Shown: positions 1 through 27,067, counted from the first letter of the stretch. The stretch: 51,853 nt of DNA from a bacterium HR08 (GCA_002898775.1 BEHK01000001.1:1-51853); one strand, 5' to 3'. Numbers and translations: made by a program. Notes: generated by a model not told the origin, from the sequence alone.

Positions 1-1
1 A

Positions 2-223
2 CAGTTCTTCAATGCCGATTTCGGGCTTCTGAAGCGCACTCGCTTTGCCACGCCGCTCAACGAGCAGACGGAGCTGGAGTTCCGGGCCGAATTCTTCAAC
101 ATTTTCAATGTGCCCAACTTCTTCGTGGGAGAAAGCCATAACATCAACAGCACGAGCTTCGGTCGGATTACGCAGACGTTCGACCCTCGCATCATTCAAT
201 TTGCGTTCAAGCTGAATTTCTAA
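2..223 (+). CDS. C-terminal end of a TonB-dependent-receptor-like outer-membrane barrel (5' partial, runs off window)
   Basis: The frame is open from the window edge to TAA at 221-223. The tail FGRITQTFDPRIIQFAFKLNF parallels the tail of the 1066-aa receptor at 45518-48718 (FGVITSAFDPRILQFGLKVFF), with a terminal aromatic residue. Confidence 0.75.
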   Translation, partial: QFFNADFGLLKRTRFATPLNEQTELEFRAEFFNIFNVPNFFVGESHNINSTSFGRITQTFDPRIIQFAFKLNF

Positions 224-235
224 TGACTTTTCTGG

Positions 236-330
236 GAGCGCACGCGTCTTGCGTGCTTAAACCGACGGGCTCTCACGGGCCCGCCGGGCCGCCCTGATAC
301 CGAGCGCACGCATCTTGCGCACTTAAACCG
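236..330. repeat. Imperfect 29-bp direct repeat (236-264 and 302-330, 26/29 identical)
   Basis: The copies are gagcgcacgcGtcttgcgTGcttaaaccg and gagcgcacgcAtcttgcgCActtaaaccg. The first copy forms a GCACGC/GCGTGC hairpin just after the upstream stop codon. Confidence 0.6.
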
Positions 331-720
331 GTAAATTTCTGTTCGTGCTCTTCGATGCGGACTCGCCGCGCCTGCTCGGCATCATCGGCCTGCTGAATTT
401 CCCGGCGATAGAGGATGTTGACTGTCCCTTCCGACCCCATCCCGCAATTTCTGCGTCGGCCGGGCATAATTGATGTCAGTGCGAATATGCTTGGAGCCCA
501 TGTCGCAGTAGGCGCCGCCGTAAGATTTTCGGGTGATGATCGTGATCTTCGGCGCGGTCGCCTTGGCAAACGCAGAGAGCAGTTTAGCGCCGTGATGGGT
601 AATGCCGCCATGCTCTTGATCGCTGCCGGGGGGAATCCAGGGACATCTTCAAACGTGATGATCGGGATGTTAAAGCGATCGCAGAAGCGAACGCTTTGAC
701 CGAGGACTGAGGCCGAAGAT
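273..720 (-). pseudogene. Fragment of a propionyl-CoA carboxylase beta / methylmalonyl-CoA carboxyltransferase gene (C-terminal third only, frameshifted)
   Basis: Reverse-strand translation gives [62 protein letters not shown] and [16 protein letters not shown] in three different frames. One shift sits in the G6 run at 628-633. The N-terminal two thirds of the gene are absent. Confidence 0.6.
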
Positions 721-1067
721 GTGAGGATCCGTATGGCTGGTGATTTTGATCATGACGGCAGTCGGTTGGGTTCCGGTCACGCGCCATCTTTTCATATTCA
801 CCACGTTGGGAATGTTCTCAGCGTCAGGGAAGAGAACTTCGGGAAACGTTAACCACCGTCTCTGGAAAGCTGAATTTTCACATTGCCGGTGACATCTTGA
901 TTACTCCACACGATGATTCTCTCTTGTTCGACAGCCCACACCTCATTTTGTGCCGGAGCGCTCACGGTGATCGTTTGCAGTGTTTCGCTGATCGTGAACC
1001 CAGCGTCGCTGGTATCTGTCAGGGCAGGAGTATCAACGCTTGAAATCCGGATGCGGGCTTGCGCCAT
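721..1067 (-). pseudogene. Fragment of a repeat-domain protein (GNVKIQLSRDGG-type module), truncated and frameshifted
   Basis: ORF 849-1067 ends in VTGNVKIQLSRDGG then TAA. The motif continues in another frame (FPEVLFPDAENIPNVVNMKRWRVTGTQPTAVMIKITSHTDP). The ORF begins in the middle of a repeat. Confidence 0.35.
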
Positions 1068-1269
1068 GGAGGTCGCGCCCGGTGAGGCGCATCATGCTTT
1101 GGCAGATTCGGGGGCGGGGCGTCGTTGATCTGTGCGGAATTTTCCCGAGGGATATGATGTCTGCCAGAAGGGATGACCGCTCCATGAAGGCGCGCCTGCC
1201 GTGCCCGTATTCCCGTGGGCCGGAGGTCCTCATGGAACAGCTTCAACTGCCGGGTGTGAATCTGCTCAT

Positions 1270-2274
1270 TTAGCGGCCTCGCCGTTGCTGTGGCTGCTCC
1301 TCACGGTAGACTTCCGTGTCAGGATAAAAATCGCTCCAGGCGAACCAGAAGAGCGCAATCGAAGGGATGAGAATCCCGCTCTCATCGGTGACGTATCCGG
1401 TCTCCGATTTCTTGTCGAAGTGGATGATGACCTTCTTCCCGTTGATCCGATCCTCGAACCGTTCGGGCTTCTTCTTCAAGATGGCGAACGGATAAGCCTT
1501 CTTCACGCCGTTCACCGAGAGGCCGAGCACGCGCTCCATGGGCCTGAGTTTTACGCCCGACTTCGTCTCTTTGGGCGGCCGCCGGAAGCGCGGCGGCTGG
1601 CCCATCTCCCAGTATTCTTGATAGGGATTCAGGCCGTAATCGCGGCGGAATCCCGTCTCGGGCGAGAGGACGAGCGTCTGAGGATGTTGCGCCCGCCAGT
1701 ACGCCCACGTCGTGTGCAGACTCGGCAGGACCGCGAGCTTCGCTCCTGTCATCGGGCCGGCGATGGCTTCTCCCTTGAGCTGCGACCAGAGACTCTCGGT
1801 CTGGCGGTCGTACATGACCAAGGCCGCCTTGTAGAGTTTGCCCGACACGCCAAAGGTGAATCGCTTGCCGTCAATGATCGGGTCGTACACGACGCCCGAA
1901 CTGCAAAGCGGTCACCAGGTGACGAGAACGGGCCGATCCCCAACCCGATCGTTGACGATCTCGTGCCAGTTGAGGATCTTGATCGGGTAGGCTTTGGCCG
2001 CGCCGGCGAGCGAAACACCTAAGACGCGGTCCCAAGGACGCAGGAATTTTTCGGCCTCGCGAGCCGAGACGAATGTGGGCGAGTCGAGAGCCGGGATGCC
2101 GTCTTTAGGCGGTCCGCCGCCTTGAATGTCTTCGAGTGGAACCGAGCGCTTGGTGACGTCGAACGGGCGCTGACCCGGACCCGCATCGAGATATTGCTTC
2201 TCTTGAACGAACGCGATGAGCCCGCCCGGGCCCATCACGCAACAGAGAGCGGCAATCAGAACCGATGTCTTCAT
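1270..2274 (-). CDS. DUF3179-family exported protein with an in-frame TGA (1912-1914) at the first Cys of the conserved CPxC motif; candidate selenoprotein (UPLC)
   Basis: ORFs 1912-2274 and 1270-1890 are in the same frame (1005 nt in total) and are joined only by a TGA. The read-through gives VLVTW-U-PLCSSGVVYD followed by GVSGKLYKAALVMYDRQTESLWSQ, which is DUF3179-like. It has an N-terminal membrane anchor or signal, and a GGGAGG SD lies 7 nt upstream of the ATG. Confidence 0.7.
1878..1899 (-). promoter_or_regulatory. Candidate SECIS-like hairpin downstream of TGA 1912-1914
   Basis: The RNA ucgggcgucg-ugua-cgacccga forms a bulged 8-bp stem. The apical loop UGUA lies 23-26 nt after the UGA. 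Confidence 0.4.
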
Positions 2275-2382
2275 CGCTGACCTCCCGAGCTGAGGGTGGC
2301 TGAAAACTCTCTCGAATCGGACAAAGCTCCAGCTTTTGGCGGAGAAACCGCTCTGCCGGGCGAGCCTCTTGCCAGCGCCGGC

Positions 2383-2877
2383 TCAATCGGCAGCAGTATC
2401 CTCGGCGAGATCCTCCAACTCGAGCGAGGTCGTGATGGTCACGCAGCCGCCGATGGTTCGAGCGACGGGGCAGTATTCGACATGCCTTTCGTAGGCTCGG
2501 AGAGCGGCCTCGCGCTTGTCCGGTCTCAGGCGCAGGTGATACGTCACGTGAATGCGCCGCACGACGAGCACGCGCCCGTCGGCTTCCACCTCGCCCGTTG
2601 CCTCCGAGGTGAGCCGTCCTTCTCCGGCGGGGATGCCGCGCGCTTCCAGCGCGCCACCGAAAGTCCCGGTGAGTCAGCCCGCCGCCGCGGCCACCAGATA
2701 ATCGAGCGTCGTGGCGTGCGGCTCATGGACGCGCGGATCAACGCCGTAGTGCGCGGCCACCTCGGAGTGAACGCCGAAGAGAACCGGCTGCGATTCCGCC
2801 GGAAGATAAGCCCGCCGGAGCGGTCCCGCGACGCGCTCAATCCGTACCTGCGAACGATAAACCACAGCGCTGTTCAT
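2383..2877 (-). CDS. OsmC/Ohr-family peroxiredoxin-like protein with an in-frame TGA (2674-2676) at the conserved active-site Cys; candidate selenoprotein
   Basis: The read-through gives DYLVAAAAG-U-LTGTFGGALEARG, and the second conserved Cys is present as EYCPVARTI. The two ORF halves share a frame. A GGAGGT SD lies 6 nt before the ATG at 2877. Confidence 0.7.
2638..2654 (-). promoter_or_regulatory. Candidate SECIS-like hairpin downstream of TGA 2674-2676
   Basis: GCGCGC-UGGAA-GCGCGC has a 6-bp stem. The loop lies 26-30 nt after the UGA. Confidence 0.35.
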
Positions 2878-3000
2878 CGGTTGACCTCCACGCATTTATT
2901 TTGGCTGAACACAGAGTCCATTTCAGCGAACCTTTGCCTGAACGCCCGATAGGACGCAGCGGCGATCGCGAAAGACGCATAGGCGCATGGCCATACGCCT

Positions 3001-4065
3001 CTACTTGTTGCGTCCCCTTTGGCGAGCGACCGGGGTGTAAATCTTCGTATCCGGGAAGTAGGCGGCCCAGGCGTACCAGGCTCCCGTGTGAGCCGGCACG
3101 GCTGCAAGTTGCTCGCCGCGCAGTCGCCCCGACTCGGCGCGACCGGCCAAGTTCCACCGGGAGCGCGTGGCCGTATCCACCGCATCGAGCCGTTGGCCCT
3201 GCCGATCCGCGTTTTCGAACCGGAGCACGCGCTTGCCCAGCTTGCGCTCGTAAGCGGCTGCGGTGTTCGCCTGTGGGTCGTAGAAGACGACGATCGGCAC
3301 GCCGCCGACGACATCGTTGATCACGCCGCCCGCCTGCTTGAGCGTGGATAAGGGATAGGCTTTGCGTTCATCGCCCAGGGCCACCGCCAGGACCAGCTCC
3401 ATCCTTCCCAATCGCTCATCCCGATGCGTGAGCGTGCGCTCGAAAACGGGGCTGAGCTGCCGGGGCTGCCAGCGGAAGGGCTTGTAGTGGGCTTGATGCG
3501 GCGTCCGGTTGGAAACGATCAGCGTATCGGGATGGAGCTGTTTCCACTTCGCCCAGCTCGTCTGCACGACCGCGAGTTTGTTGAGTCTTTGGCCTGCGAG
3601 CGGGCCGTCCATCGCCTCACCGCTCGTCAACGACCAGACGCTCCCCGTCTCCCGATCGGCGAACACCAGTTCGGCATTATACAACCCGTGAGGCTTGAAC
3701 GTCAGCCGCTTCCCCTCGTCGGTCGCGGAGTCGAACCCGACTCCCGTCCCGCAGACCGGTCAGTAGACGAGGACGATGGAGCGGCCCCTGACGACGTCGT
3801 TGACCACGTGATGATAGGCCATGATCCGGAGCGGATAGGCCCGGCTCTCTCCCTCAAGTGCAATGCCCATCACCGTCTCGTTGTCATCCAGGTAGCCACT
3901 ATCGGGATGGGTGGCGGGGATGAACTCCGGGTTGGTCAACTCCGGGGGGAATTGGGTGACGACGAAGAGCTTGTCTTTTTGGAACTGAGAAAGCGCGTTC
4001 ATAGGTCCCATCGTCAAGAGAGCGACGAGCGGCACCGTCAGGCGGCCGAATCGTCGAAGCGTCAT
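3001..4065 (-). CDS. DUF3179-family exported protein (paralog) with an in-frame TGA (3760-3762) at the first Cys of CPxC; candidate selenoprotein (UPVC)
   Basis: ORFs 3760-4065 and 3001-3684 are in frame (1065 nt). The read-through gives RSIVLVY-U-PVCGTGVGFD followed by LYNAELVFADRETGSVWS. It has a signal-like N-terminus, and an AAGGAGGTGA SD lies upstream. Confidence 0.7.
3727..3744 (-). promoter_or_regulatory. Candidate SECIS-like hairpin downstream of TGA 3760-3762
   Basis: GGAGUCG-GGUU-CGACUCC is a perfect 7-bp stem. The loop GGUU lies 23-26 nt after the UGA, the same register as in the paralog. Confidence 0.5.
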
Positions 4066-4163
4066 GATCGTTCCTCACCTCCTTGTCGGCCTTTTCCGGC
4101 GAGTCACGAAACGTCAGTCTACCACACCCACATCATCGAGAGGAAAAGCGGAGCCGGGAAGAA

Positions 4164-4703
4164 TCAGGGCTCGGACAATAATCGTTCGACCTCGCGGACG
4201 AAATCCTCCTCGTCCATGAAACCGGCGTGCTCGGCACGGATGCGCCCTTTCCGATCAATGAAAAACGTCATGGGGAGTCCCGTCAATGCGCCGAACTTTT
4301 CCGCGACTTTTTCATCGCCAAGGATGACGGTGTAGGGGAGAGCGTGTTCCCGGATGAACGTTTTGACTTCTCGTTCGTCCTCGTCCAGGGAGATGGCGAT
4401 GATCTCCAGCCCCTTATCTCGATACGTCGCGTGGAGCTTCTTGAAGGTTGGGACTTCCATCACGCAGGGAGGGCACCAGGTCGCCCAAAAATCCACGATG
4501 ACGACTTTGCCCCGCAGGGAGGCCAAACTCACCGGGCGACCGTGAACGTCCACAAGCTCGAGCTCCGGTGCGGGCCGGCCCCTGTCATCAGCATCCTTGT
4601 CGGCCGCAACGGCGAGAGTCGGATCATGAGCGGGGACGCATGACCATGTGCCTCTGTTGCCGACGATGAGCGACATTCCGGCAGCCAGGACGACGGCGAT
4701 CAC
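4164..4703 (-). CDS. TlpA/ResA-like membrane-anchored thiol:disulfide oxidoreductase (thioredoxin fold, WCPPC)
   Basis: It contains GKVVIVDFWATWCPPCVMEVP and LPMTFFIDRKG. The start is uncertain. I chose GTG 4703 (or ATG 4676) because the longer ORF to 5003 would read through palindromic repeat copy a at 4731-4768. Confidence 0.8.
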   Translation of the reverse strand: MIAVVLAAGMSLIVGNRGTWSCVPAHDPTLAVAADKDADDRGRPAPELELVDVHGRPVSLASLRGKVVIVDFWATWCPPCVMEVPTFKKLHATYRDKGLEIIAISLDEDEREVKTFIREHALPYTVILGDEKVAEKFGALTGLPMTFFIDRKGRIRAEHAGFMDEEDFVREVERLLSEP

Positions 4704-4730
4704 CCCAGCAAGTTCCTGCGAGAGGCGAGC

Positions 4731-4768
4731 GGGGTCCCCAAGCGATCTCTGGATCGCTTGGGGTGCCC
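4731..4768. repeat. Palindromic repeat family, copy a
   Basis: The sequence is ggggtCCCCAAGCGATCtctgGATCGCTTGGGGtgccc, with a 12-bp perfect stem. Confidence 0.85.
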
Positions 4769-5048
4769 GAGCGGTTCCTCGTGCTCTTGAGCGTCTCAGC
4801 ACGGCTGTCGAGGGTATCGCGATATGGTCCGAAACAGTCGGCCGTAGGCGCGGCCAGATGGCCTCGCGCTCCGGCGTCGGACAACGCCATCTGGTATTCT
4901 TCGATCGGTCATGATCGTCTCCGGCAGATTGAGAATTCGCATCGAACGGCCAGCTTAGCGCCACTGGACCGCGCCGTTCAGTAGTCGAGATTACACGTCG
5001 CAAAACGTCTCTTGCCGGTGTCCCTTCCGCCTCTGTCGAAAAAAGGGC

Positions 5049-5080
5049 TTGACCTTGCAGTTGGCTGCAAGGTTTAGAAT
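5049..5080 (+). promoter_or_regulatory. MerR/CueR-type promoter-operator
   Basis: In TTGACC-ttgcagttggctgcaaggtt-TAGAAT the spacer is 20 nt. It carries a perfect dyad ACCTTGCAG-N4-CTGCAAGGT that overlaps the -35 element. Confidence 0.7.
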
Positions 5081-5104
5081 GGCAGACGTGAAAGGAGGCG
5101 TGAG

Positions 5105-5554
5105 ATGTCGGGTCGGACGTTTTACATCGGCGAGCTGGCGCGGGCCGTGGGGGTGAAGCCCCAGACGGTTCGCTATTACGAGCGGGAGGGATTGTTGGGA
5201 CGGGCGGCGCGGACGCGTTCGGGCTACCGCCTCTACGATGAGGAGGCGCTCTTGCGGCTGCGCTTCATTCGAGCGGCGCAAGCGCTGGGGCTGTCGCTGG
5301 CGGAGATTCGAGAGCTTGTGGTGCTCAGCCGCGAGGGACGGTCCCCGTGCGCGCGAGTCCGAACCTTGCTCCGAGAAAAGCTTCGGGCGCTGGATCAGAA
5401 GATCGCCGAGCTGCGAGCCTTTCGCCGGGAGCTGGCCGCTCGACTCGCTCAATTGGACGCGATGCCCGATCAAGCAGACTCCTCGCCCTACGTCTGCTCG
5501 CTCATCATGACGCTGGCCCGGCGTCACCGTCCAGATCACGGAAAGGAGGGATGA
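5105..5554 (+). CDS. MerR-family heavy-metal-responsive transcriptional regulator
   Basis: The N-terminal HTH reads YIGELARAVGVKPQTVRYYEREGLL. It has a coiled-coil dimerisation helix and Cys residues at GRSPCARV and PYVCSL. An AGGAGG SD lies upstream. Confidence 0.85.
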   Translation: MSGRTFYIGELARAVGVKPQTVRYYEREGLLGRAARTRSGYRLYDEEALLRLRFIRAAQALGLSLAEIRELVVLSREGRSPCARVRTLLREKLRALDQKIAELRAFRRELAARLAQLDAMPDQADSSPYVCSLIMTLARRHRPDHGKEG

Positions 5555-5557
5555 CCT

Positions 5558-5731
5558 ATGCGACGAACCCGTCGGATCGTGCTGTTGCTGGCCTTGAGCG
5601 TGGCGATCGGATCGGGAGCACTCTATGGGTTCAAGGTGTCGTCCGAGAGCCCGGCGAGCTGCCCGGGTCGGATCGTCTGCCCGCTCACGGGCAAGATCAT
5701 CTGTCGCGACGCCTGTCCGCTGAAGAAGTGA
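5558..5731 (+). CDS. 57-aa membrane-anchored Cys-rich peptide (not in ORF track, under 60 aa)
   Basis: The peptide is MRRTRRIVLLLALSVAIGSGALYGFKVSSESPASCPGRIVCPLTGKIICRDACPLKK. A GGAGGG SD lies 7 nt upstream, and the start is 4 nt after the regulator stop. Confidence 0.5.
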   Translation: MRRTRRIVLLLALSVAIGSGALYGFKVSSESPASCPGRIVCPLTGKIICRDACPLKK

Positions 5732-5749
5732 CGGCGTCGGTCACCGCAG

Positions 5750-5773
5750 GGGAGCGCCTGCGAGGGCGCTCCC
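5750..5773 (+). other. GC-rich stem-loop between the small peptide gene and the next gene
   Basis: GGGAGCGCC-tgcgag-GGCGCTCCC has a 9-bp stem and no U-tract. It may be an attenuator or a processing site. Confidence 0.3.
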
Positions 5774-5813
5774 TCGTGGAGGGAAGGAGGCTGAGATAGA
5801 GAAGCGGCGCGCT

Positions 5814-6101
5814 ATGGTTCGCCGGTGGGGGCCAATCTACAGTGGGGTGGCGGTGCTGGCATCGCTCCCCTGGTGCTGACTGGCGCCGACGGTGTTCGCC
5901 CTGCTCGGGACAGCAGGGACCGTCGCCGCGCACATGATCTTCGTCCGCGGGAATGCGATCTTCGAGGGCCTCACCGTGTACGCTCTGCTGCGCGCGCATT
6001 ATCTGGTGAACGTGAGGGGGCAGGGAGGGCGAACGGCTCGCTTCACGGTGTGGGCGGGGACACTCGTCTCGGCCTTGCTTTGGAGCTTTCGCCTCTTTTG
6101 A
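5814..6101 (+). CDS. MerT/MerF-like small membrane protein with an in-frame TGA (5877-5879) at the second Cys of the TM1 Cys-Cys pair; candidate selenoprotein (C-U)
   Basis: The read-through VLASLPWC-U-LAPTVFALLGTAGTV aligns with ASLCCTGPLVAALLGLGS of the MerT-like proteins at 8310 and 10791. ORF 5892-6101 is in frame with ATG 5814. The product has about three hydrophobic helices. The SD is weak. Confidence 0.55.
5899..5918 (+). promoter_or_regulatory. Candidate SECIS-like hairpin downstream of TGA 5877-5879
   Basis: CCCUGC-ucgggaca-GCAGGG has a 6-7 bp stem. The loop begins 26 nt after the UGA. Confidence 0.35.
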
Positions 6102-6115
6102 CCGGGAACCGTCAC

Positions 6116-7126
6116 ATGCCCTATCGGCCGGAAACTTCGGAATTCGTAGCGGCCTTTGCCTCGACGGCAGAGCCTCAGGAAAAGCCAGCAGGAAAGCCTG
6201 CGCCATTCCGGAGAGCGCGGTCCTGGAGCGCGGCGCTTTTGTTCCTCGGCGGCGTGGGGCTTTCATCGGCTGAACTGCGCGCCCAGACCATCGTGGCTCC
6301 GAGCGCGCGCACGCTCTTCAATCGGGCGACGCTTGTGCGCTTGTCGGTCGAAGTCCGGCATTCGTCCCTTCGAACAGACGGAAGATCAACCGCTGTCACT
6401 CAGTATGTCCCGGTGCTGGCCGTCGTCTATGGATTTCGCCCGAACTGGACGATCATCGTGGCTCAGCCTTACGCGGTCGTAGATGTGACCAACCGGATGG
6501 GGGATGAAACCCGACGAGAGAGCTTGAACGGCCTGGCTGATACGCGGGTGTTTATTCAATACGATGGGCTTTACAGGCGCAACACGCCCGGCGGGCTGAC
6601 GCGGCTATCGGCGGTCTTTGGTGTGCAGGTCCCCACCGGTGCCGATCGGTTCTCAACAGGTGCGGTGGCTTATACTGGCGGAATGATCTTCCAGAAAGCG
6701 GTGAGGTTGAAGCATGTCTTCACCGGAGATTTCGAATATACTCGTGCGACCGAGAACCGTCGGGGCCTCTCGATGGGCGACCGGATCCGGTTTGACGCCG
6801 CTCTGTCGCGCTTTGTTATTTCCCAGGATAAAGCTCCGCCTGGCGCGAGTTGGCCGCGCAAGGCCTTCGATCGCATCTTTCGTTACGGAGCGTACTTCGT
6901 CCTGGAACTCAACGGCACTTGGCAGGCTCGCGCCCGCACTCGCGGAACTCCGATTCCCGACAGCGGCGGGACGATGCTCTCGGTGTCGCCGGGAATCCAG
7001 TGGTTTTTGAGCAACGCGTTTTTGGTCGAGATTTCCGCCCCGATTCCAGTCGTCAAGGCGCTCAGCGGGAAGCAGCCCAAACCCAACTCGACGTTTCTCT
7101 TGGGATTCCGGATTCTGTTTTTCTGA
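6116..7126 (+). CDS. Outer-membrane beta-barrel protein (MetA/transporter-like), signal peptide
   Basis: Starting at ATG 6116 gives a signal-like SWSAALLFLGGVGLSSAELRAQ. The sequence has an alternating beta-strand pattern and ends in LLGFRILFF with a terminal Phe. Confidence 0.5.
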   Translation: MPYRPETSEFVAAFASTAEPQEKPAGKPAPFRRARSWSAALLFLGGVGLSSAELRAQTIVAPSARTLFNRATLVRLSVEVRHSSLRTDGRSTAVTQYVPVLAVVYGFRPNWTIIVAQPYAVVDVTNRMGDETRRESLNGLADTRVFIQYDGLYRRNTPGGLTRLSAVFGVQVPTGADRFSTGAVAYTGGMIFQKAVRLKHVFTGDFEYTRATENRRGLSMGDRIRFDAALSRFVISQDKAPPGASWPRKAFDRIFRYGAYFVLELNGTWQARARTRGTPIPDSGGTMLSVSPGIQWFLSNAFLVEISAPIPVVKALSGKQPKPNSTFLLGFRILFF

Positions 7127-7169
7127 GTATGAGACGACGAAACATTCAGCCTCTTTGGAGGGTTTGAAT

Positions 7170-7733
7170 ATGAGAAAGCAAGGCATGTGGCTTCTGTTTG
7201 TATTTTGCCTTCTTACCGCCGTGCCGGTGTCGGCCCAGGTCGAGAAGGCGAGGGTCAAAATTGACGGCATGATCTGAGGTCTCTGAGCGCGAGGGGCTCA
7301 GAGAGCCCTCCAACGCCTGGATGGCGTTGATCGTGTCGAGGTGAATTTGGTGAAAGGGGAAGCCGAAGTATTTTCCAAGCCCGAGAAGTCTTTCGATCCT
7401 GTCCTGATCCCTAAGGCTCTTCGGGAGGCCGGCTTCACGGCGACCGAGGTCGTGGTGACGGCTGAGGGAACTCTGATCAAGGGGGAGGAAGCCTTCACAC
7501 TGGATGTTCCGGGACTGGCGCACCCGTTTGTGCTGGCCGGCGGAGCACAGGCCGACACGCTCAGAAAACGGACAGACCTCGTGGGGAAGAAAATCCGCGT
7601 GACCGGGAAGCTTCATCCCAGCCATGCGGATCATCCGCCCGGCCTTACGGTCGAGAGCTTTGAGCAGTTGCGCGAGGATGGTCTCGGCCTCGGCGGGAAA
7701 ATGGTGTTGCGCCTGGTGGGGCGGAGAATGTGA
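7170..7733 (+). CDS. Secreted HMA (MerP/CopZ-fold) domain protein whose GMxCxxC metal site is encoded as GM-I-TGA-G-L-TGA; candidate U-x-x-U selenoprotein
   Basis: The signal peptide ends VSA/Q. Then comes VKIDGMI-U-GL-U-ARGAQRALQRLDGVDRVEVNLVKGEAEVF...ALREAGF, a canonical HMA fold. The TGAs are at 7275-7277 and 7284-7286, and everything is in frame with ORF 7341-7733. A GGAGG SD lies 8 nt upstream. Confidence 0.7.
7280..7310 (+). promoter_or_regulatory. Two overlapping, mutually exclusive hairpins at and after the paired TGAs (candidate SECIS)
   Basis: Stem A is UCUCUGAGC-gcgaggg-GCUCAGAGA (9 bp, and it includes the second UGA). Stem B is GAGGG(G)CUC-aga-GAGCCCUC (8 bp with a bulge). Confidence 0.4.
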
Positions 7734-7778
7734 CCTAAGGGCGACCAAATCAAAGTGTCGTCGAGCAAAAATTAGAGC

Positions 7779-7810
7779 TTGACTCTGGAGGCGAGTCCAG
7801 GGTTTATACT
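7779..7810 (+). promoter_or_regulatory. MerR-type promoter-operator
   Basis: In TTGACT-ctggaggcgagtccagggtt-TATACT the spacer is 20 nt. The dyad CyCTGGA-N6-TCCAGrG is imperfect. Confidence 0.65.
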
Positions 7811-7817
7811 TCCGATT

Positions 7818-8285
7818 GTGAAAACGAGCGGAGCAGAAGCGACGCTGTTGAAGATCGGGCAGGTGGCCGCCGAATGCGGCGTGAGCGTGGATACGCTCCG
7901 CTACTACGAGCGGTTGGGGCTTGTGCCCAAACCGGTGCGCACGGCGAGCGGGTATCGGCTCTACGATCGGCGCATCCTGGAGCGCTTGAGCTTCATCAAG
8001 CGGGCGCAGAGCTTCGGCTTCACGCTCGAGGAGATCAAACAGTTGCTCCAATTGCCGACGGCAGAACCGCGGACGTGCGCGGAAGTTCTTCAGGTGATCG
8101 AGCACAAGCTCGACGACCTCGATCGGCGATACGAAGAGATCAAGCGGCTGCGGCGGGAGCTGGCGGCCTACAAGGCCGAGTGCGAGCGGGCTCTCGCCGG
8201 GCGGAAGAGTTGTCCGGTCATCGAAGATTTTCTTCACCCTTCCTCTCGCGCGGCAAAGCCCCGGCGGGGGCGGAAGCGAGAGTGA
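7818..8285 (+). CDS. merR: MerR (mercury-type) transcriptional regulator
   Basis: The HTH reads KIGQVAAECGVSVDTLRYYERLGL. Three Cys residues are placed as in Hg-MerR (EPRTCAEV, AECERA, KSCPVIEDF; compare SCPLI in Tn21 MerR). The start is uncertain: GTG 7818, which would be nearly leaderless, or TTG 7848. Confidence 0.8.
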   Translation: MKTSGAEATLLKIGQVAAECGVSVDTLRYYERLGLVPKPVRTASGYRLYDRRILERLSFIKRAQSFGFTLEEIKQLLQLPTAEPRTCAEVLQVIEHKLDDLDRRYEEIKRLRRELAAYKAECERALAGRKSCPVIEDFLHPSSRAAKPRRGRKRE

Positions 8286-8309
8286 ACGGATGTCGTGGAA
8301 GGAGGGACG

Positions 8310-9116
8310 ATGAGAGAGAAGATCACACTGGGGGCATCACTCATTGGGGCGATCGCGGCGTCGCTCTGCTGCACGGGGCCGCTTGTGGCTGCGCTCCTTG
8401 GCCTGGGCAGTTTCGGCGCGGCGGCGGCCTTCGAGGCCTGGCGACCATATTTGCTCGGCGTCACGGCAGTGCTGCTTCTCGCAGCGTTTTATTTCACCTA
8501 CCGCCGGCCAAAGGTCGCTTGCGCCGAGGGCGCGTGCGCGACGTCCGAGGCTTCGCGGTGGAGCAAGCTCGCGCTGTGGATCGCTGCGGGCGCCGTCATA
8601 GCACTTGCGGCCTTTCCGTATTATTCGGGGCGGCTGTGGGCGGCGCTCGGTCGCCACGCGGGCGGGCCATCGGCGTCACACGCGCAGGCGGCGACCGGCC
8701 GAATCATCACGGCGCGAATGGCCGTCACGGGGATGACCTGCGGCGGGTGCGCAACTGCGCTGGAAGCAGCGCTCAGAGAGATCTCCGGAGTGCAATTGGC
8801 GGCGGCGAGCTACGAGAAAGGCGAAGCCACCGTCGAGTACGATCCGGCGCGGGTCAAGTTAGAAAAGCTTGTGGAAACGGTCAAGGAGACCGGATTCACG
8901 GTCGAAGCTGTGACGGCGACCATCCCTGTCGAAGGGATGACCTGTGCCGGGTGCGCGGTGTCGGTCCGGCAGGCGCTCCTGCAGCGCGATGGGGTGAAGG
9001 CTGTGGAAGTCAGTGTCGAGAAGAAGCACGCCGTCGTGACGTTCGATCCGGCCCGCCTCACCCTCGAGCAAGTGGCCGACGCGATCAACAAAACGGGTTT
9101 CAAGGCCCTCCTGTGA
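8310..9116 (+). CDS. merT: MerT-like mercuric transporter fused to two HMA (MerP-like) domains
   Basis: TM1 reads ASLCCTGP, the loop carries CAEGAC, and there are two GMTCxxC domains (GMTCGGCA and GMTCAGCA). Confidence 0.8.
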   Translation: MREKITLGASLIGAIAASLCCTGPLVAALLGLGSFGAAAAFEAWRPYLLGVTAVLLLAAFYFTYRRPKVACAEGACATSEASRWSKLALWIAAGAVIALAAFPYYSGRLWAALGRHAGGPSASHAQAATGRIITARMAVTGMTCGGCATALEAALREISGVQLAAASYEKGEATVEYDPARVKLEKLVETVKETGFTVEAVTATIPVEGMTCAGCAVSVRQALLQRDGVKAVEVSVEKKHAVVTFDPARLTLEQVADAINKTGFKALL

Positions 9117-9176
9117 GGAGCGCGATCATGGGGATGGCTTATGCCTATCCGAGCCGTTGCTCGAACGTGAGCGACG

Positions 9177-9214
9177 CGGGTACCTCAAGCGATCTCGAGA
9201 TCGCTTGGAGTCCC
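9177..9214. repeat. Palindromic repeat family, copy b
   Basis: The sequence is gggtaCCTCAAGCGATCTCGAGATCGCTTGGAGtcccc. Confidence 0.8.
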
Positions 9215-9262
9215 CACATGGTCTGACGTGCGAGCCCGGTTGGTCGAGGAGGTGGAAGACTC

Positions 9263-9790
9263 ATGTCCGAGTGTTGCCAGGTGCCGATCGTGGCCAATTC
9301 AGCTCACTGCCGCTTGTGCGGGCGGAAAGGACAGTCCGTCACGCGGCGGACGATGGAACACTTGCTCGTGGATTCGGCGAGGGCCCGCCTCGAGGATCAT
9401 CCCTACTTTTTCTGCGCGACGCCGACCTGTCCGGTCGTCTACTTTTCCAACGAGGCGGATTCCTACTTCTGCAAAGGTGATGTGCGCGTGCGGGTGGGAG
9501 TGAAGGAAACCGAAGATCCGGTGCCGATCTGCTATTGCTTCGGCATCACGGAGAAGATGGTGCGCGATGAGATCGCAGCGACGGGACGGACGACGATTCC
9601 CGATTACATCAAGGCGCAAATCAAATCGGGCCGATGCGCTTGTGAGATCATGAATCCTTCGGGCCGATGCTGCCTCGGCGTCGTGACCGGGATCGCGCTC
9701 AGACTAGTGAAGCGATCGGGCTCGACAAGGAAGCGGGAAGAATCTATTGCGGCCTCGATGCCCGAGTGCTGCGCGGTGACGAAGTCGTGA
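9263..9790 (+). CDS. Cys-rich CopZ-family / putative Fe-S metallochaperone-like protein
   Basis: It contains MSECCQVP, CRLCGRKG, YFFCATPTCPVVYF, a BFD-like ICYCFGIT and a C-terminal PECCAV. A GAGGAGGTG SD lies upstream. Confidence 0.6.
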   Translation: MSECCQVPIVANSAHCRLCGRKGQSVTRRTMEHLLVDSARARLEDHPYFFCATPTCPVVYFSNEADSYFCKGDVRVRVGVKETEDPVPICYCFGITEKMVRDEIAATGRTTIPDYIKAQIKSGRCACEIMNPSGRCCLGVVTGIALRLVKRSGSTRKREESIAASMPECCAVTKS

Positions 9791-11765: not shown

Positions 11766-12131
11766 ATGGCAAGAGACACAAGAATGGGAATGATCACGGT
11801 AGACTTGGCAGAGTTGAGTCCTGAGATTCATGACGCCTTGGCTCACATTCGGGAAGTCGCCTATGCCGATGGCATCTTCCCCGCGAAAGTGAAGGTGCTC
11901 ACGGCGCTCGCCATTTCCACCATCATCAAGTGCGAGCCGTGCGTGCGGATGTATGTGGAGAAAGCCATAGCCCTCGGCGTCACACGCGAAGAGATGGTCG
12001 AGATGCTCAACGTCGCGATGGCCATGGGCGGCTGCCCGGGCGAGGCTTGGGTGCATAAAGCCCTACTGCTCTATGAGAGCCAAGTGCAAAGGCGACTGGC
12101 GACGGTCTCCAGCGACGCCTGCTGCGCGTAG
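11766..12131 (+). CDS. Carboxymuconolactone decarboxylase (CMD)/AhpD-like family protein with CxxC
   Basis: It contains TIIKCEPCVRMYVEKA and has a C-terminal DACCA. A GGAGGGAG SD lies upstream. Confidence 0.7.
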   Translation: MARDTRMGMITVDLAELSPEIHDALAHIREVAYADGIFPAKVKVLTALAISTIIKCEPCVRMYVEKAIALGVTREEMVEMLNVAMAMGGCPGEAWVHKALLLYESQVQRRLATVSSDACCA

Positions 12132-12198
12132 TCGGTCGCGCGTCGGCCGGAGTCGGCCTTTGACCGATCGAAGCCTTGAGAGAAAGGAGGTGTTCGCT

Positions 12199-12675
12199 AT
12201 GAGGAGCAAGATCACTACCCTGCCTCTTGTGCTCGTCGCTTGTTGCGTTTTACTCCTTGCCGATCCCCCCGCAGTGGCGCAAAGAGCGGGCGAGCCGGTG
12301 GTCGTGAAATCAAAAAACAGTTTTGCCGATACGGTATCCAAGCTGAAGAGTGCCATTCAGCAGAACCAGATGATGGTGCTGTTCGAGGCAAATCATAAAA
12401 ACATGATGGCGATGGTCGGCGTGGAGAGCAAAAACAGCGTCACCGTTCTCTTTGGCCGTCCGCAGATGGGGGCCATGCTGATGGGCGCGGAGCCGAAAGC
12501 GGCGCTGGAGATGCCCATGCGCATCGCTGTGCGCGAGCTGGATAACGGTGAGATTGTGGTCATCTACTACAAGCCGTCATATCTGCTCTCGCATTACAAG
12601 AACGCCAAGCTCGATCCGATCGGCCGGCAGATGGACGCCATGCTGCAGAAGCTCGTAGACGCGGCGACAAAGTGA
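12199..12675 (+). CDS. DUF302-domain secreted protein
   Basis: It has a signal peptide and the segments MVLFEANHKNMMAMVG and EMPMRIAVRELDNGEIVVIYYKP. An AGGAGG SD lies upstream. Confidence 0.7.
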   Translation: MRSKITTLPLVLVACCVLLLADPPAVAQRAGEPVVVKSKNSFADTVSKLKSAIQQNQMMVLFEANHKNMMAMVGVESKNSVTVLFGRPQMGAMLMGAEPKAALEMPMRIAVRELDNGEIVVIYYKPSYLLSHYKNAKLDPIGRQMDAMLQKLVDAATK

Positions 12676-18021: not shown

Positions 18022-18753
18022 ATGAAGAAGATCAGCCTCGATCACCTTCGCCCTCCGGATCGGGCGCGACTTGACGCGCTCGTCGGGCAAGTCGAACAGG
18101 CGGTGCCGATTCTTCGAGAGCGCAGTGTGCCCTTGAGCCCACAAGAGCGGCAAGTCTGGCAGGCCGTTTTACATAGGTTCGCTCAGTTCGGGCGGGCACC
18201 GACGGTCGGGGAGTTGTCCAGCGGCCGAACTGGCCTCTCACCAGAAGTCACTCACGCATGCTTGGAGCGATTAGCTGCGAAAGATGTCATCGTGCTCGAT
18301 GAGCGGTCAGGCGAAATTCTCGGCGCGTATCCCTTCTCTGCCCGTCCGACGCGCCATCGGGTGAGCTTTGACGCTCAGACCGTCTATGCCATGTGCGCCG
18401 TGGATGCTCTCGGCATCGCCGTAATGCTTGGCCGAGAGGTTCGAATCGAGTCGCGCTGTCCACTGTGCGGCGGAGCCATCAACGTGAAGGCAGACGCTGA
18501 AGGAATAACCCACTTGGAGCCGGCGTCGGCCGTGGTTTGGTTGGGTGAACCGAGGGCACGAGCGACTTGCTGCGCCGATTGGCTTTGCCCGGAGATCAAC
18601 TTCTTCTGTTCGGATGAACATGTGAATCAGTGGCGGCTGGGGCAAGCCGAAGCGAGCGGTTATACACTCATGCCTCTTGAGGCGCTCTACCTGGCCAGTC
18701 GCTTCTTTGCCGGTTTGCTTCAGCGGCATCCTGAAGAAGGAGGGAAGATATGA
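18022..18753 (+). CDS. merB: Organomercurial lyase MerB
   Basis: YAMCAVDALGIAVMLG matches YAWCALDTLIFPALIG, RCPLCGGAINV matches HCAATGAPVSL, and TCCADW...NFFCS matches FCCHVHFFAS of R831b MerB. Confidence 0.85.
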   Translation: MKKISLDHLRPPDRARLDALVGQVEQAVPILRERSVPLSPQERQVWQAVLHRFAQFGRAPTVGELSSGRTGLSPEVTHACLERLAAKDVIVLDERSGEILGAYPFSARPTRHRVSFDAQTVYAMCAVDALGIAVMLGREVRIESRCPLCGGAINVKADAEGITHLEPASAVVWLGEPRARATCCADWLCPEINFFCSDEHVNQWRLGQAEASGYTLMPLEALYLASRFFAGLLQRHPEEGGKI

Positions 18754-19262
18754 AAAGCGTCTCCTTGGTCATGCTCGGCATCCTCTGCATGCCCGTGTGC
18801 ACTTTGGCACAAACCTCGCCGCTCCACCTCAGGGTGGTCGGCGATGTGGAAGCGAACAAGGCACTCAAGATCCTTTGACCGAGCACGGTGAGCGGCATGC
18901 TCCAACGCCAGGCTGGCGTTGAAAAAGCGACCTACTCCCGTGACGGTGTAGTCGAAATTGAAGCGAAGACCGAAGCTCCGTTTGAAGTGAAGCGAATCCT
19001 TTCGGTGCTCAAAGACGAAATGGGTTTTGATCCGATTCGGGAGATCGAGGTCACGGTCGTTGGCCAGCTCAGCTCAACTTCGGCAGGATGGATCGTGAAA
19101 CCGAAAAATAGCGTCGAGGCGTTCGCCCTGGTCGAGAATGAAGAACTCCAGGGGCTCAAGGCAAGAGAGAACATCGAACACCAAGAGATCAGGCTGACAG
19201 GGAGGCTTCAGAAGCGAGCCGATGGTACGCTCGCCCTCAAAGTCGAGGCGGTGGAGAGGTGA
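18750..19262 (+). CDS. Secreted HMA-like protein, paralog of 7170-7733, with a single in-frame TGA (18876-18878) at the second metal-ligand position; candidate selenoprotein
   Basis: After a signal peptide it reads LRVVGDVEANKALKIL-U-PSTVSGMLQRQAGVEKATY. The U lies 13 residues before the conserved GV, exactly as the second U of the paralog does. The C-terminal half resembles the paralog. The ATG overlaps the merB stop (ATATGA). Confidence 0.6.
18903..18921 (+). promoter_or_regulatory. Candidate SECIS-like hairpin downstream of TGA 18876-18878
   Basis: CAACGCC-aggcu-GGCGUUG is a perfect 7-bp stem. The loop lies 32-36 nt after the UGA. Confidence 0.4.
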
Positions 19263-19511: not shown

Positions 19512-20351
19512 ATGTTCGAGTATCTCACCGAGTACTGGTTTGCTTTCCCGGTCGTGGCGCTGGGCTGCACGATGACGATCATGGGTGGCGTCGGGGGCAA
19601 TGTCGTCTGCGGGCCGTTTTTCATGCTGGTGCTGAAATTGTCACCGGAAGCGGCAATTGGAACGGCGTTGGTCACCGAAGTCTTCAGTATGTCGAGCGGC
19701 GTCATCGGCTACGGACGGCGCAAGCTGATAGACTACAAACTGGCATTGTTTTTAGCCCTGGGAGCTGTGCCAGCGGCCATCGTCGGCTCATTGCTTTCTG
19801 TGCATGCGCCGGGGACTTTCCTGAAGATCATCTTCGGCGGAGCCATCATGATCATTGCTTGGCTGCTGTATCGCTCGCCGAACGAGACCGTCCTTGCCGC
19901 TCAAGAGGCGATCGTGAATCCTGGAGTGCCCGGCGTGCGCACGCGCATTGATCGTCAGGGCCGCGTCTCCTCGTACCGGGTGTGTCGGCGAGGACAACTC
20001 TTGGGCATCAGCGTGCTCGCCGGATTAGGGTCGGGGCTTGTCGCCATCGGTGGCGGCGAACTGAACACGCCGGCGATGGTGCTCCGTTGCAAAATTCCGG
20101 TTCGCATTGCGGCCGCGACGGCTGTGTTCACCATGGCCCTGACCGTCATGGCAGGTGCGAGCACGCACGTCCTTGTTGGTCGGCCCGTTTGGAACCCTGC
20201 TCTCTGGACCATCCCCGGAGCCATCCTCGGTGGGCAATTGGGGAGCTATCTGGCCAGCCGCATCGAATCGGAGGCGCTGAAGCGGTGGCTTTCGCTTCTC
20301 TTCGTGCTGGTCGGTATGGTGATGATCGCGGACGCCGTATTTCTGAAGTAG
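19512..20351 (+). CDS. TauE/SafE (TSUP, DUF81) family permease
   Basis: It is polytopic and contains MGGVGGNVVCGPFFMLVL and GGGELNTPAMV. Confidence 0.75.
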   Translation: MFEYLTEYWFAFPVVALGCTMTIMGGVGGNVVCGPFFMLVLKLSPEAAIGTALVTEVFSMSSGVIGYGRRKLIDYKLALFLALGAVPAAIVGSLLSVHAPGTFLKIIFGGAIMIIAWLLYRSPNETVLAAQEAIVNPGVPGVRTRIDRQGRVSSYRVCRRGQLLGISVLAGLGSGLVAIGGGELNTPAMVLRCKIPVRIAAATAVFTMALTVMAGASTHVLVGRPVWNPALWTIPGAILGGQLGSYLASRIESEALKRWLSLLFVLVGMVMIADAVFLK

Positions 20352-25735: not shown

Positions 25736-27067
25736 ATGATGGAGATGAAAACCCCCTTTACGGATGGCGTTTCTGTCACCCCGACGGGGACCCAGGCGGT
25801 CCCTCGGTTTCGGGTGGATGTTCCCGTTCATCAGTTGCTGATGCGGCCTCGAATTCGATCCCCGCTGTCGGTTTCGGGCGAACCTCAAACGCTGCCGGAT
25901 CCTGTCTTTCCTCAGCACCCGGAATTGCTCGGTGACGATCCGCGCGATGAGGAGGCCCATCGAGCCGCGATTGCGGGGAGACGGTCGTGGCCGGCCCCTC
26001 TGGTTCTGCGGGCGATGCGAGGGTGGTTGTTCCCCTACATTAAATCGCGTGTTCTTCCGGGCGATTTCCATCCCATCATTGCTTATCTGTTCACCGAGTG
26101 GAAATGCAATCTGGATTGCCACTACTGCTGGGCGTTCGACAATCGGGTGAAGGGCATGACTGAAGATACGGCCAAACGCGCGATTGACTGGCTTCACAAT
26201 GACACGGTCTGTCGCGTGCTGGCTCTGATGGGAGGAGAACCGCTCCTGCGACCTCACTTCGTGCACAAGGTGATCTATTACGCAGCGAAAAAAGGCTTCT
26301 GGGTGTACTTGCCCACCAACGGGAGACTCCTGCGCCCGGCGGTGATTGATCGGATCGCCGATGCCGGTGTCGCCGTCGTCAATCTTGCTGTGGATGTGGT
26401 TGATGAGAAAGCAGGACTCCCCAAGGCGCTCAATCCCATTCGGTCGTACTTCGAGTATCTGGTCAAAAGGCAGTACCGCTATGGCTACTGCGTGTTTTTC
26501 AACATCAACATCTGCCGGAACAACCTGGAGGACGTCAAGCAACTGACCGAGATTGCGCACGACAACGGCATCGCCACCGACTATCACATCAACGAGACGC
26601 CGATGTTGGAGGAAGGGCACTTTCAGCACTACGAGAATAACGAGACGTTCATCCGGCCGGAGGATTGGCCTCGGGTGGACGAGCTGATTGATTGGCTGTG
26701 CGAGAAGAATCGTCAGGGCTACAAGATGGTCAACTCGATCCAGCGCTTGCAGGAGATGAAGGCGTTCATGCGCGGCACGCTTCAGCAGTGGGATTGCCGG
26801 GCCGGGCAGAACAGCTTCATCATTCGCGTGGATGGAACGCTTGCGCCGTGCTTCCCGATGTATTCGGCCACCTACGACTGGGGGACGGTTGAGAAGCCCA
26901 AATTCGACGTGCGTCAGCTCACCGAGATGAAGCGAAGCTGCCAGCCGCATTGCTTCTCGACGCTCAATCACAATCTGGCCTATTGTTACAAGGCCTCGCG
27001 AGCCATCCGCTGGGTCTTCAAGCAAGCGCTGCGCAAGTTCCAAGGGGTGACCGGCAGCTTCGATTGA
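25736..27067 (+). CDS. Radical SAM enzyme, subfamily unknown
   Basis: It contains LFTEWKCNLDCHYCWAF (CxxxCxxC) and GGEPLLRP, plus a C-terminal Cys-containing auxiliary region (CRAGQNSFIIRVDGTLAPC). A GGAGG SD lies upstream. Confidence 0.8.
   Translation: MMEMKTPFTDGVSVTPTGTQAVPRFRVDVPVHQLLMRPRIRSPLSVSGEPQTLPDPVFPQHPELLGDDPRDEEAHRAAIAGRRSWPAPLVLRAMRGWLFPYIKSRVLPGDFHPIIAYLFTEWKCNLDCHYCWAFDNRVKGMTEDTAKRAIDWLHNDTVCRVLALMGGEPLLRPHFVHKVIYYAAKKGFWVYLPTNGRLLRPAVIDRIADAGVAVVNLAVDVVDEKAGLPKALNPIRSYFEYLVKRQYRYGYCVFFNINICRNNLEDVKQLTEIAHDNGIATDYHINETPMLEEGHFQHYENNETFIRPEDWPRVDELIDWLCEKNRQGYKMVNSIQRLQEMKAFMRGTLQQWDCRAGQNSFIIRVDGTLAPCFPMYSATYDWGTVEKPKFDVRQLTEMKRSCQPHCFSTLNHNLAYCYKASRAIRWVFKQALRKFQGVTGSFD

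Follow-up and report, generated by a model that had tools for sequence, protein, structure and literature searches.

How are the in-frame TGA codons of a small redox gene cassette read, and what does this cassette do beside mercury-resistance genes? We addressed these questions on a 51,853-nt stretch of DNA from bacterium HR08 (GCA_002898775.1, BEHK01000001.1:1-51853), which as a whole is called the window below. Positions 1270-4703 of its minus strand hold four co-directional genes, which encode a TlpA-like thioredoxin, two paralogues of the DUF3179 family (DUF3179-A and DUF3179-B) and, between these two, an OsmC-like protein. Selenocysteine (Sec, U) is predicted at one TGA in each of the last three:

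4164-4703, minus strand: TlpA/ResA-like thioredoxin-fold protein, membrane-anchored, with an ATWCPPC site (Pfam AhpC-TSA 3.4e-29, Redoxin 1.8e-26)
3001-4065, minus strand: DUF3179 paralogue A with N-terminal signal/anchor and the motif VY-U-PVCGTG (PF11376, 1e-73)
3760-3762, minus strand: predicted Sec-UGA of DUF3179-A, on an invariant Cys column
2383-2877, minus strand: OsmC-like predicted selenoprotein, AAG-U-LTG with YCPV downstream (PF02566, 7e-13)
2674-2676, minus strand: predicted Sec-UGA of the OsmC-like gene, kept in relatives and on the active-site Cys of 1UKK
1270-2274, minus strand: DUF3179 paralogue B with N-terminal signal/anchor and the motif TW-U-PLCSSG (PF11376, 3.9e-88)
1912-1914, minus strand: predicted Sec-UGA of DUF3179-B, in the same alignment column as the TGA of paralogue A and on the invariant Cys

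The four genes and their motifs, as a first-pass annotation had proposed from the DNA, were all present at these coordinates, and Pfam backed the family of each. Both DUF3179 proteins matched PF11376 over the full domain and above the gathering threshold (248.7 and 296.1 bits; cut-off 27).

The alignment confirmed that the TGAs of the two DUF3179 paralogues share one column. The column count proposed by the first-pass annotation gave Cys in all 116 of the 116 full-length homologues. We also inspected 80 loci from GTDB representative genomes, which served as the sample of Cys-type genes; the motif search reached the column in 74, and the codon was TGC or TGT in 73 and TGA in the remaining one, 'bacterium HR10'. 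This genome (locus L006), syntenic with positions 1-9131 of the window (81-93% nucleotide identity), has preserved the three cassette TGAs, and the related metagenome contigs L001-L005 likewise retain them. For DUF3179-A, the TGA was kept in the orthologues of L003 (80% identity) and L006 (92%), with ratios of nonsynonymous to synonymous substitution (dN/dS) of 0.11-0.19 on either side. The TGA of the OsmC-like gene was retained in L002-L006 (dN/dS 0.05-0.18) and that of DUF3179-B in L001-L006 (0.05-0.30 on either side). Taken over all cassette TGAs, dN/dS was 0.05-0.30 both upstream and downstream, at dS values up to >1, and therefore the downstream halves are not decaying. Thus, neither a variable or non-Cys column nor decay of the downstream halves in relatives, which the first-pass annotation had named as refutations, was observed. 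When the OsmC-like protein was aligned to the T. thermophilus OsmC (1UKK), its U fell on the Cys of AGCF and its YCPV on GCPV; by this alignment, the predicted Sec is at the first active-site Cys position and the second Cys is retained.

The ordinary stop codon of both the TlpA-like and the OsmC-like gene is itself TGA, which argues for context-dependent recoding and not for a reassigned codon. We then analysed the RNA hairpins downstream of the three UGAs as candidate selenocysteine insertion sequence (SECIS) elements:

3724-3746, minus strand: predicted SECIS hairpin of DUF3179-A, CGGGAGUCG-GGUU-CGACUCC(G)CG; the loop begins 22 nt past the UGA
2635-2657, minus strand: predicted SECIS hairpin of the OsmC-like gene, GCGCGCU-GGA-AGCGCGC with a lower extension; the loop begins 26 nt past the UGA
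1878-1899, minus strand: predicted SECIS hairpin of DUF3179-B, drawn in the register that the family conserves, UCGGGCGU-CGUGU-ACG(A)CCCGA

The published model of the bacterial SECIS (bSECIS) has a loop of 3-9 nt, an upper stem of 4-16 bp, a G in the first two loop positions, a spacing of 16-37 nt and a minimum free energy (MFE) of -7.5 kcal/mol or lower (PMC13188914). The hairpin of DUF3179-A agrees with this model in every respect (loop GGUU, 7 bp, spacing 22, -10.7/-13.7 kcal/mol), and so does that of the OsmC-like gene (loop GGA, 7 bp, spacing 26, -11.2/-16.5 kcal/mol). For DUF3179-B, the energy (-9.6 kcal/mol), the loop CGUGU with its G at position 2 and the spacing of 20 all pass; its upper stem has 3 bp before a 1-nt bulge and is borderline on the strict stem rule. 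The -13.7 kcal/mol of DUF3179-A corresponds to z = -2.8, and the core of this hairpin is kept in L003 and L006. The OsmC-like hairpin has z = -3.3 at -16.5 kcal/mol, with none of 200 shuffles equal to it, and is unchanged across five related loci whose flanks vary. Synonymous-site conservation past the UGA of DUF3179-B was in the top 1-5% of windows.

The 63-65-nt windows after each UGA were no stabler than shuffles (MFE z = +0.7 to -0.8), and a bSECIS-like filter passed 7.6-22.5% of all 1,722 TGA triplets, so that it is poorly specific in this GC-rich window. Searches of the 52 kb against Rfam, whether at gathering or at permissive thresholds, detected neither a SECIS nor any other credible RNA. 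As hairpin energy is weak evidence in such GC-rich DNA, we used covariation and a control with Cys-type forms as the primary evidence. A metagenome scan with the degenerate pattern HExxND-N33-TGA-CCN yielded at least 120 Sec-type stretches. Among the matches listed, all 80 of 80 loci were DUF3179 homologues with the TGA at the Cys column, and the motifs were UPLC (65), UPLT (15) and UPLS (1). The gap-free alignment of 82 Sec-type DUF3179 regions revealed a 7-bp stem at nt 17-23/29-35 from the U of the UGA, with a CGUGU-type loop. Of its stem cells, 89.7% were paired as against 77.2% in shuffles (0/500), and 72 cells were changed on both sides of the stem as against 25 (0/500), with compensatory switches in three stem pairs. 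Registers slid along the alignment gave 22-53% pairing. The Cys-type homologues lacked the hairpin: 48% of their cells were paired, and their median local MFE was -4.0 kcal/mol compared with -10.15 kcal/mol for the Sec-type genes.

This family covariation identifies GGGCGU-CGUGU-ACG(A)CCC as the functional register of DUF3179-B. Hairpins had been noticed after both DUF3179 TGAs at first pass and they do follow them, but the one drawn for DUF3179-B, GUCG-UGUA-CGAC, reaches -5.3 kcal/mol where the conserved register reaches -9.6 kcal/mol, and the conserved loop is CGUGU and not UGUA. By comparison with the model and the family, each cassette UGA is predicted to be decoded via a SECIS hairpin 20-26 nt downstream.

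From the conserved codons, the selection on both halves and the hairpins, we concluded that the three cassette TGAs are almost certainly genuine Sec codons and their products selenoproteins, with Sec at catalytic or ligand Cys positions as had been supposed. A reading of the TGAs as Trp, Gly or Cys by reassignment or readthrough has a negligible probability: it could draw on the fact that no Sec machinery is seen in the 52-kb window, but the TlpA-like and OsmC-like genes terminate at TGA, each in-frame TGA aligns to Cys and the UGA-linked hairpin matches the bSECIS model. Equally slight, and effectively refuted, is the idea of real stops in pseudogenes, erroneous sequence or split genes making separate N- and C-terminal fragments, for although gene callers split the genes (P0028, P0040, P0044 and P0102 are C-terminal fragments) and a GTG is present after the DUF3179-B TGA, the same TGAs recur in the independent assemblies L001-L006, where each half evolves under purifying selection at dS >1, metagenomes hold at least 120 Sec-type DUF3179 stretches, and the SECIS with compensatory changes is limited to TGA forms.

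Neither of the two selenoprotein families is new. Lists of prokaryotic selenoprotein families include DUF3179 with the motif UxxC/T, traced to a 2007 study of Olavius symbionts and credited to Zhang & Gladyshev, as far as the summaries in the reviews PMC9312934 (2022) and PMC13188914 (2026) go. OsmC-like selenoproteins have been on record since the Sargasso Sea selenoproteome of 2005 (PMC1088965), and the NCBI Prokaryotic Genome Annotation Pipeline already uses the name 'DUF3179 domain-containing (seleno)protein'. The novelty that the first-pass annotation implied is thus withdrawn for the families; the new element is that these genes form a conserved group on the margin of a mer island. Its statement that DUF3179 has no established function holds, as the literature searched assigns none. 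The cassette shares with the catalogued DUF3179 selenoproteins the Pfam domain, the Sec position in U-P-x-C, a SECIS immediately downstream and abundant Cys homologues. It differs in that the HR10-related lineage has two Sec paralogues with a Sec-OsmC and a TlpA-like gene in a mer island, an arrangement that is undescribed in the literature searched. Similarly, the OsmC-like protein shares with its known Sec relatives the OsmC fold, Sec at the first active-site Cys and the kept Cys of CPV, but its motif is U-L-T-G-T where reviews list UxxT.

Next, we considered where the products would act. N-terminal hydrophobic segments were present in the TlpA-like protein (hydropathy of the N-terminal 15 aa, 2.61), DUF3179-A and DUF3179-B, and absent from the OsmC-like protein. 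The DUF3179 paralogues are accordingly predicted to be extracytoplasmic and the OsmC-like protein cytoplasmic, and the label 'exported', first given to the whole operon, fits three of the four products. The TlpA-like protein scored below the NCBIfam equivalog cut-offs for ResA (114.1 against 170) and TlpA (81.8 against 230); by these scores, it is best described as a TlpA-like redoxin, not a demonstrable orthologue of either. The OsmC-like protein passed PF02566 (49.2 bits; cut-off 27.5) and fell below the NCBIfam OsmC subfamily (23.6; cut-off 85.8), which would make it a divergent member of the OsmC/Ohr family and a predicted hydroperoxide reductase.

The two DUF3179 paralogues are 33% identical to each other, and the family has about 33 invariant positions, including His104, Asn108-Asp109, Tyr96-Pro97, a Ser and a SLWSQ motif. 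For the structure of the UPxC site, the modelling of which had been suggested at first pass, we used an AlphaFold2 model of a Cys homologue (61% identical, pLDDT 92.8). The model is nearly all-β, and it places the CPxC in the turn of a β-hairpin, knuckle-like between two strands and away from a helix N-terminus, unlike in thioredoxin folds. DUF3179 turned out to be an internal duplication of a β-domain of ~95 aa (hhalign probability 98.2%, E = 2.8e-14), with the Sec/Cys knuckle on a 35-residue insertion within repeat 1. Sequence and profile searches detected no relative of solved structure, and Foldseek of the model against PDB gave nothing significant (best E-value 0.025). The sole significant fold match was an uncharacterised protein of Indivirus, a giant virus (Foldseek E = 7e-10). 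Matches to Rieske/NirD-like and WWE-like folds were not significant and were set aside as unsupported.

The cassette sits at the edge of a mercury-resistance island. The island contains MerA (583 bits; cut-off 454), MerB, MerTP fusions and three MerR genes, as well as a CopZ-like Fe-S metallochaperone, a DUF302 protein and a TSUP transporter. The cassette lies adjacent and divergent to a merR-led operon:

5105-5554, plus strand: MerR-family metal-responsive regulator (Pfam MerR_1, MerR-DNA-bind), divergent from the cassette
5052-5073, no strand assigned: MerR-type operator dyad ACCTTGCAGccaaCTGCAAGGT, read from the sequence and conserved in L002 and L006

This MerR matched the NCBIfam models for ZntR, MerR, CadR and CueR, all under their equivalog cut-offs, and it neighbours the cassette in L002 and L006 also. 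The dyad ACCTTGCAGccaaCTGCAAGGT lies inside a TTGACC-19 nt-TTAGAA promoter, which faces the plus strand and so diverges from the cassette; this promoter resembles those activated by CueR or MerR.

We then compared the gene order in the related loci. In L002 (ERZ650669 NODE_10496), MerR directly faces OsmC(U)-DUF3179-B(U), the TlpA-like and DUF3179-A genes are missing, and what lies upstream of DUF3179-A in the window is there joined to the region next to MerR. This gene order shows that the cassette is modular, with a two-gene module that was recently gained or lost. In the window, L003 and L006, the OsmC-like gene has a DUF3179 selenoprotein gene on either side, and in L002, L004 and L005 it comes before DUF3179-B; OsmC(U) next to DUF3179 is restricted to this HR10-like subclade. 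A MerR-MerT-HMA group is close to DUF3179-B in L001. Of the 12 loci in the clade of paralogue B (at least 59% identity), 7 had mer-family genes and the remaining five had short flanks. On three contigs (L101, L137 and L150), relatives of DUF3179-B with 59-67% identity are co-directional with MerT-like/MerP-like (HMA) genes that lie directly upstream at 118-166 nt. The link to mer genes proposed at first pass thus has contextual support.

The 80 other Sec-type metagenome loci listed had OsmC in none, MerR in none, a TlpA-like gene in 5 and MerT/HMA in 4, so the expected co-occurrence of Sec forms with OsmC and mer genes holds in one small clade but not across these loci. The TlpA/redoxin-like gene stands beside Sec-type DUF3179 in L094, L115, L124, L141 and L147, and a CcdA-like membrane protein with two Cys is also present in L094, L115 and L141; the CcdA-like label is partly motif-based, Pfam DsbD_TM being just under threshold for one and giving no match for another. 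This adjacency lends contextual support to the suggested relay from thioredoxin to DUF3179, which stays a prediction from gene order. In the Cys-type sample, the recurrent neighbours were:

ECF (extracytoplasmic function) sigma factor: 14/80 Cys-type loci
zf-HC2 anti-sigma factor: 11/80
MsrB: 6/80
ArsS: 5/80
ArsM: 5/80
disulfide-reductase-type flavoprotein: 5/80
ResA-like redoxin: 4/80

Further contexts of DUF3179 included a DsbH-type thioredoxin, MauE/DoxX, redoxins, cytochrome c peroxidase, a TSUP transporter, and chromate and metal efflux. Among the plasmids searched, most DUF3179 copies were on haloarchaeal megaplasmids, where redoxin and metal genes were their neighbours, and no mer operon accompanied the plasmid-borne copies. 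One metagenome contig, L125 (Ga0187893_10024697), holds two Sec-type DUF3179 at 942-1012 and 3164-3234, ~2 kb apart, both of them UPLT and without the second Cys; the pairing of Sec forms is therefore not unique to the lineage of the window.

We propose that the cassette encodes a selenol-thiol relay of the envelope that operates under Hg stress. The selenolate of DUF3179 would attack an oxidised or Hg(II)-bound target in the envelope, and the Cys at +3 would resolve it to form either a selenenylsulfide or a Se-Hg-S chelate. Reduction of DUF3179 would then fall to the WCPPC thioredoxin, which would in turn be re-reduced across the membrane by a protein of the CcdA/DsbD type whose gene lies elsewhere. 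In the HR10-like lineage, this module might have been recruited to Hg(II) stress, where it would feed or protect the MerT/MerP uptake route, and the Sec-OsmC would clear hydroperoxides in the cytoplasm. As a whole, this explanation is in our judgement evenly balanced between right and wrong. The step from TlpA to DUF3179, taken separately, has about an even chance of being real, and a role of the cassette specific to Hg is a more tentative proposal that we lean against.

The relay has a precedent. B. japonicum TlpA reduces the copper chaperone ScoI and CoxB, and TlpA, ResA and CcmG are recharged by CcdA/DsbD. The cassette thioredoxin shares with them the N-terminal anchor, the thioredoxin fold and the WCxxC, and it adjoins an envelope protein with Cys/Sec-x-x-Cys; CcdA-like genes occur beside other Sec-type DUF3179, but none is in the window, and the client is a predicted one.

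Several observations weigh against this explanation. No CcdA/DsbD gene was found in the window or in L006, and no tRNA, and so no Sec machinery (selA/B/C/D), was seen in the 52 kb. The adjacent MerR-type promoter faces away from the cassette. Adjacency to mer or OsmC genes is absent from most Sec-type loci, many of which are on short contigs, and neighbour clustering of the 80 genome loci gave no dominant partner of the Cys-type DUF3179. Thr replaces the second Cys in 15 of the 81 Sec forms listed, so the intramolecular Se-S step cannot be universal. The ~33 invariant residues suggest an enzyme with a specific substrate. Both these residues and the UPLT variants speak for an enzyme, and the MerT/MerP adjacency speaks for a link to Hg.

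DUF3179 might instead be a general oxidoreductase with no specific tie to mercury. According to this alternative, the protein would act on thiols/selenols in the envelope, for example in the repair of oxidised proteins of the periplasm or the reduction of a small oxidant, and the cassette would be stress cargo travelling with the island. Reviews regard Sec/Cys pairs as typically marking redox-active cysteines, and the family's neighbours (MsrB, ECF sigma/zf-HC2 anti-sigma, ResA-like, DsbH-type thioredoxin, cytochrome c peroxidase), the direction of the MerR promoter away from the cassette and the modularity displayed by L002, where TlpA and DUF3179-A are absent, are all in its favour. Against it count the mer-family genes near the DUF3179-B clade in 7/12 loci, with the other five short-flanked, and the immediate MerT/HMA adjacency on three independent contigs, and we consider it rather unlikely.

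DUF3179 could also be a non-catalytic periplasmic binder of Hg(II) or soft metals, a MerP-like scavenger or chaperone passing metal to MerT. Its Sec-x-x-Cys knuckle would then chelate, with TlpA merely keeping the ligands reduced, as TlpA does for ScoI. The relatives of DUF3179-B directly after MerT-like/MerP-like genes fit this reading, and so do the other Sec-substituted metal-binding HMA proteins of the island, a Deinococcus DUF3179 copy among metal-efflux genes and the CPxCG in a β-hairpin turn, which is a classic metal knuckle. But a 300-aa two-domain protein with ~33 polar or aromatic residues invariant across phyla exceeds the needs of a chelating loop, some members have Thr, Asn or Ser as their second ligand, and most family members are away from metal genes. 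Hence, we regard a purely metal-binding role as quite improbable.

In a bolder reading, the DUF3179-B clade would be an unrecognised periplasmic selenoprotein part of mercury-resistance systems, with the order merT-merP-DUF3179, in which a selenolate-thiolate knuckle kept reduced by TlpA-like/CcdA proteins captures or processes Hg(II) or organomercury before uptake by MerT. These two propositions together are speculative, and we would be somewhat surprised to see both borne out. If the clade is such a component, this would provide a first functional handle on a domain of unknown function with >7,000 homologues detected, a large and widespread exported family without known function or solved structure; a true Hg link would add to the ways in which bacteria are known to employ selenium against heavy metals. 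The leads that we offer are not a new selenoprotein family, but a three-selenoprotein cassette by mer genes, the adjacency of reductant genes, the SECIS model and the domain picture of a DUF3179 tandem repeat with the CPxC knuckle on an insertion.

We also compared the cassette with other systems. Like the periplasmic and accessory mer parts (MerP, MerT, MerC/E/F/G), the DUF3179 proteins are exported, carry a paired soft-ligand motif and are encoded in or beside mer operons, but their fold is unrelated (not HMA, no PDB match), they are larger, two-repeat β-proteins, and their Hg role is a predicted one. Reviews describe multi-selenoprotein operons, namely grdAB, frh/hdr, SAO and Tso, and the combination of the cassette is absent from them. 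With Tso and SAO, described by Haft et al. as summarised in PMC13188914, the cassette shares the clustering of selenoprotein genes and a metal/organometal link, but the component families differ: the only match was a weak one to the TsoB thioredoxin-domain model (22.7 bits; cut-off 805). The Sao models matched none of the four cassette proteins, which therefore do not belong to a Tso/SAO system.

The gaps between the cassette genes are 98-123 nt, and no terminator-like site was found inside any of them. The single minus-strand terminator-like match, 2263-2276, overlaps the start codon of DUF3179-B and is not above shuffle level. This layout is compatible with one transcript, without being proof of it. 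Good Shine-Dalgarno sequences had been described for all four genes; they are strong for DUF3179-A, the OsmC-like gene and DUF3179-B, but weak for the TlpA-like gene (CAGGAAC ahead of GTG 4703). The ATG at 4676 of this gene reads ATA in L006, and by this comparison its start is probably GTG 4703. Longer starts (TTG/GTG at 5003, 4964 and 4802) were rejected as indels relative to L006 break the frame. A perfect palindrome of ~24-28 bp, CCAAGCGATCnnnnGATCGCTTGG, is present in two copies, at 4738-4775 and ~9185-9222. The syntenic L006 lacks the copy upstream of the TlpA-like gene; this suggests a mobile or REP-like (repetitive extragenic palindrome) element of small size, or an inserted hairpin.

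Two further genes of the island carry TGAs aligned to Cys, making five genes with six such TGAs in the window:

7170-7733, plus strand: exported HMA-domain protein, KIDGMI-U-GL-U-A, with TGAs at 7275-7277 and 7284-7286 in the metal-binding motif
18750-19262, plus strand: HMA-like paralogue, KIL-U-PSTV, with a TGA at 18876-18878; directly after MerB, with a 4-nt overlap with its stop

The first matched, below cut-off, the NCBIfam model 'UxxU metal-binding (seleno)protein', and SECIS-like hairpins follow both of its TGAs. Its L006 orthologue (73% identity) has C-P-L-U where the window has U-G-L-U, a natural Cys/Sec exchange at the first of the two positions. This exchange and the five genes with Cys-aligned TGAs lend indirect support to a predicted Sec machinery (selA/B/C/D) in the genome. 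The TGA of the second is followed by the hairpin CAACGCCA-GGC-UGGCGUUG (-10.5 kcal/mol); judged by motif and hairpin, this protein is probably a further selenoprotein, which would bring the window to five Sec genes and six Sec codons.

The 7170-7733 gene ends an apparent merR-first operon on the plus strand (5105-7733), which runs from merR through a 57-aa Cys-rich protein and an outer-membrane protein (Phenol_MetA_deg-like) to this UxxU HMA selenoprotein. The 57-aa protein (5558-5731, plus strand) combines a hydrophobic segment at its N-terminus with a tail rich in Cys, CPGRIVCPLTGKIICRDACP, and had no Pfam or NCBIfam match; it may be a small metal-binding membrane protein. A gene of equal size follows MerR in L002. 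Just downstream of MerA lies a radical SAM/SPASM-type protein (25736-27067, plus strand), and a protein with the same family-hit profile is encoded directly upstream of DUF3179-B(U) in L001 (4014-5267), which hints at an accessory gene pool shared by mer islands. The island also has Cys versions of families with Sec forms elsewhere, among them a CC-type Fe-S metallochaperone of the CopZ N-terminal family (NF047645, above cut-off) and a CMD/AhpD-like protein with CxxC. Together with the DUF302 and TSUP/TauE genes, these account for positions 9263-9790, 11766-12131, 12073-12675 and 19512-20351, and DUF302 and TSUP genes recur near DUF3179 in L086, in L147 and on a Halorubrum plasmid.

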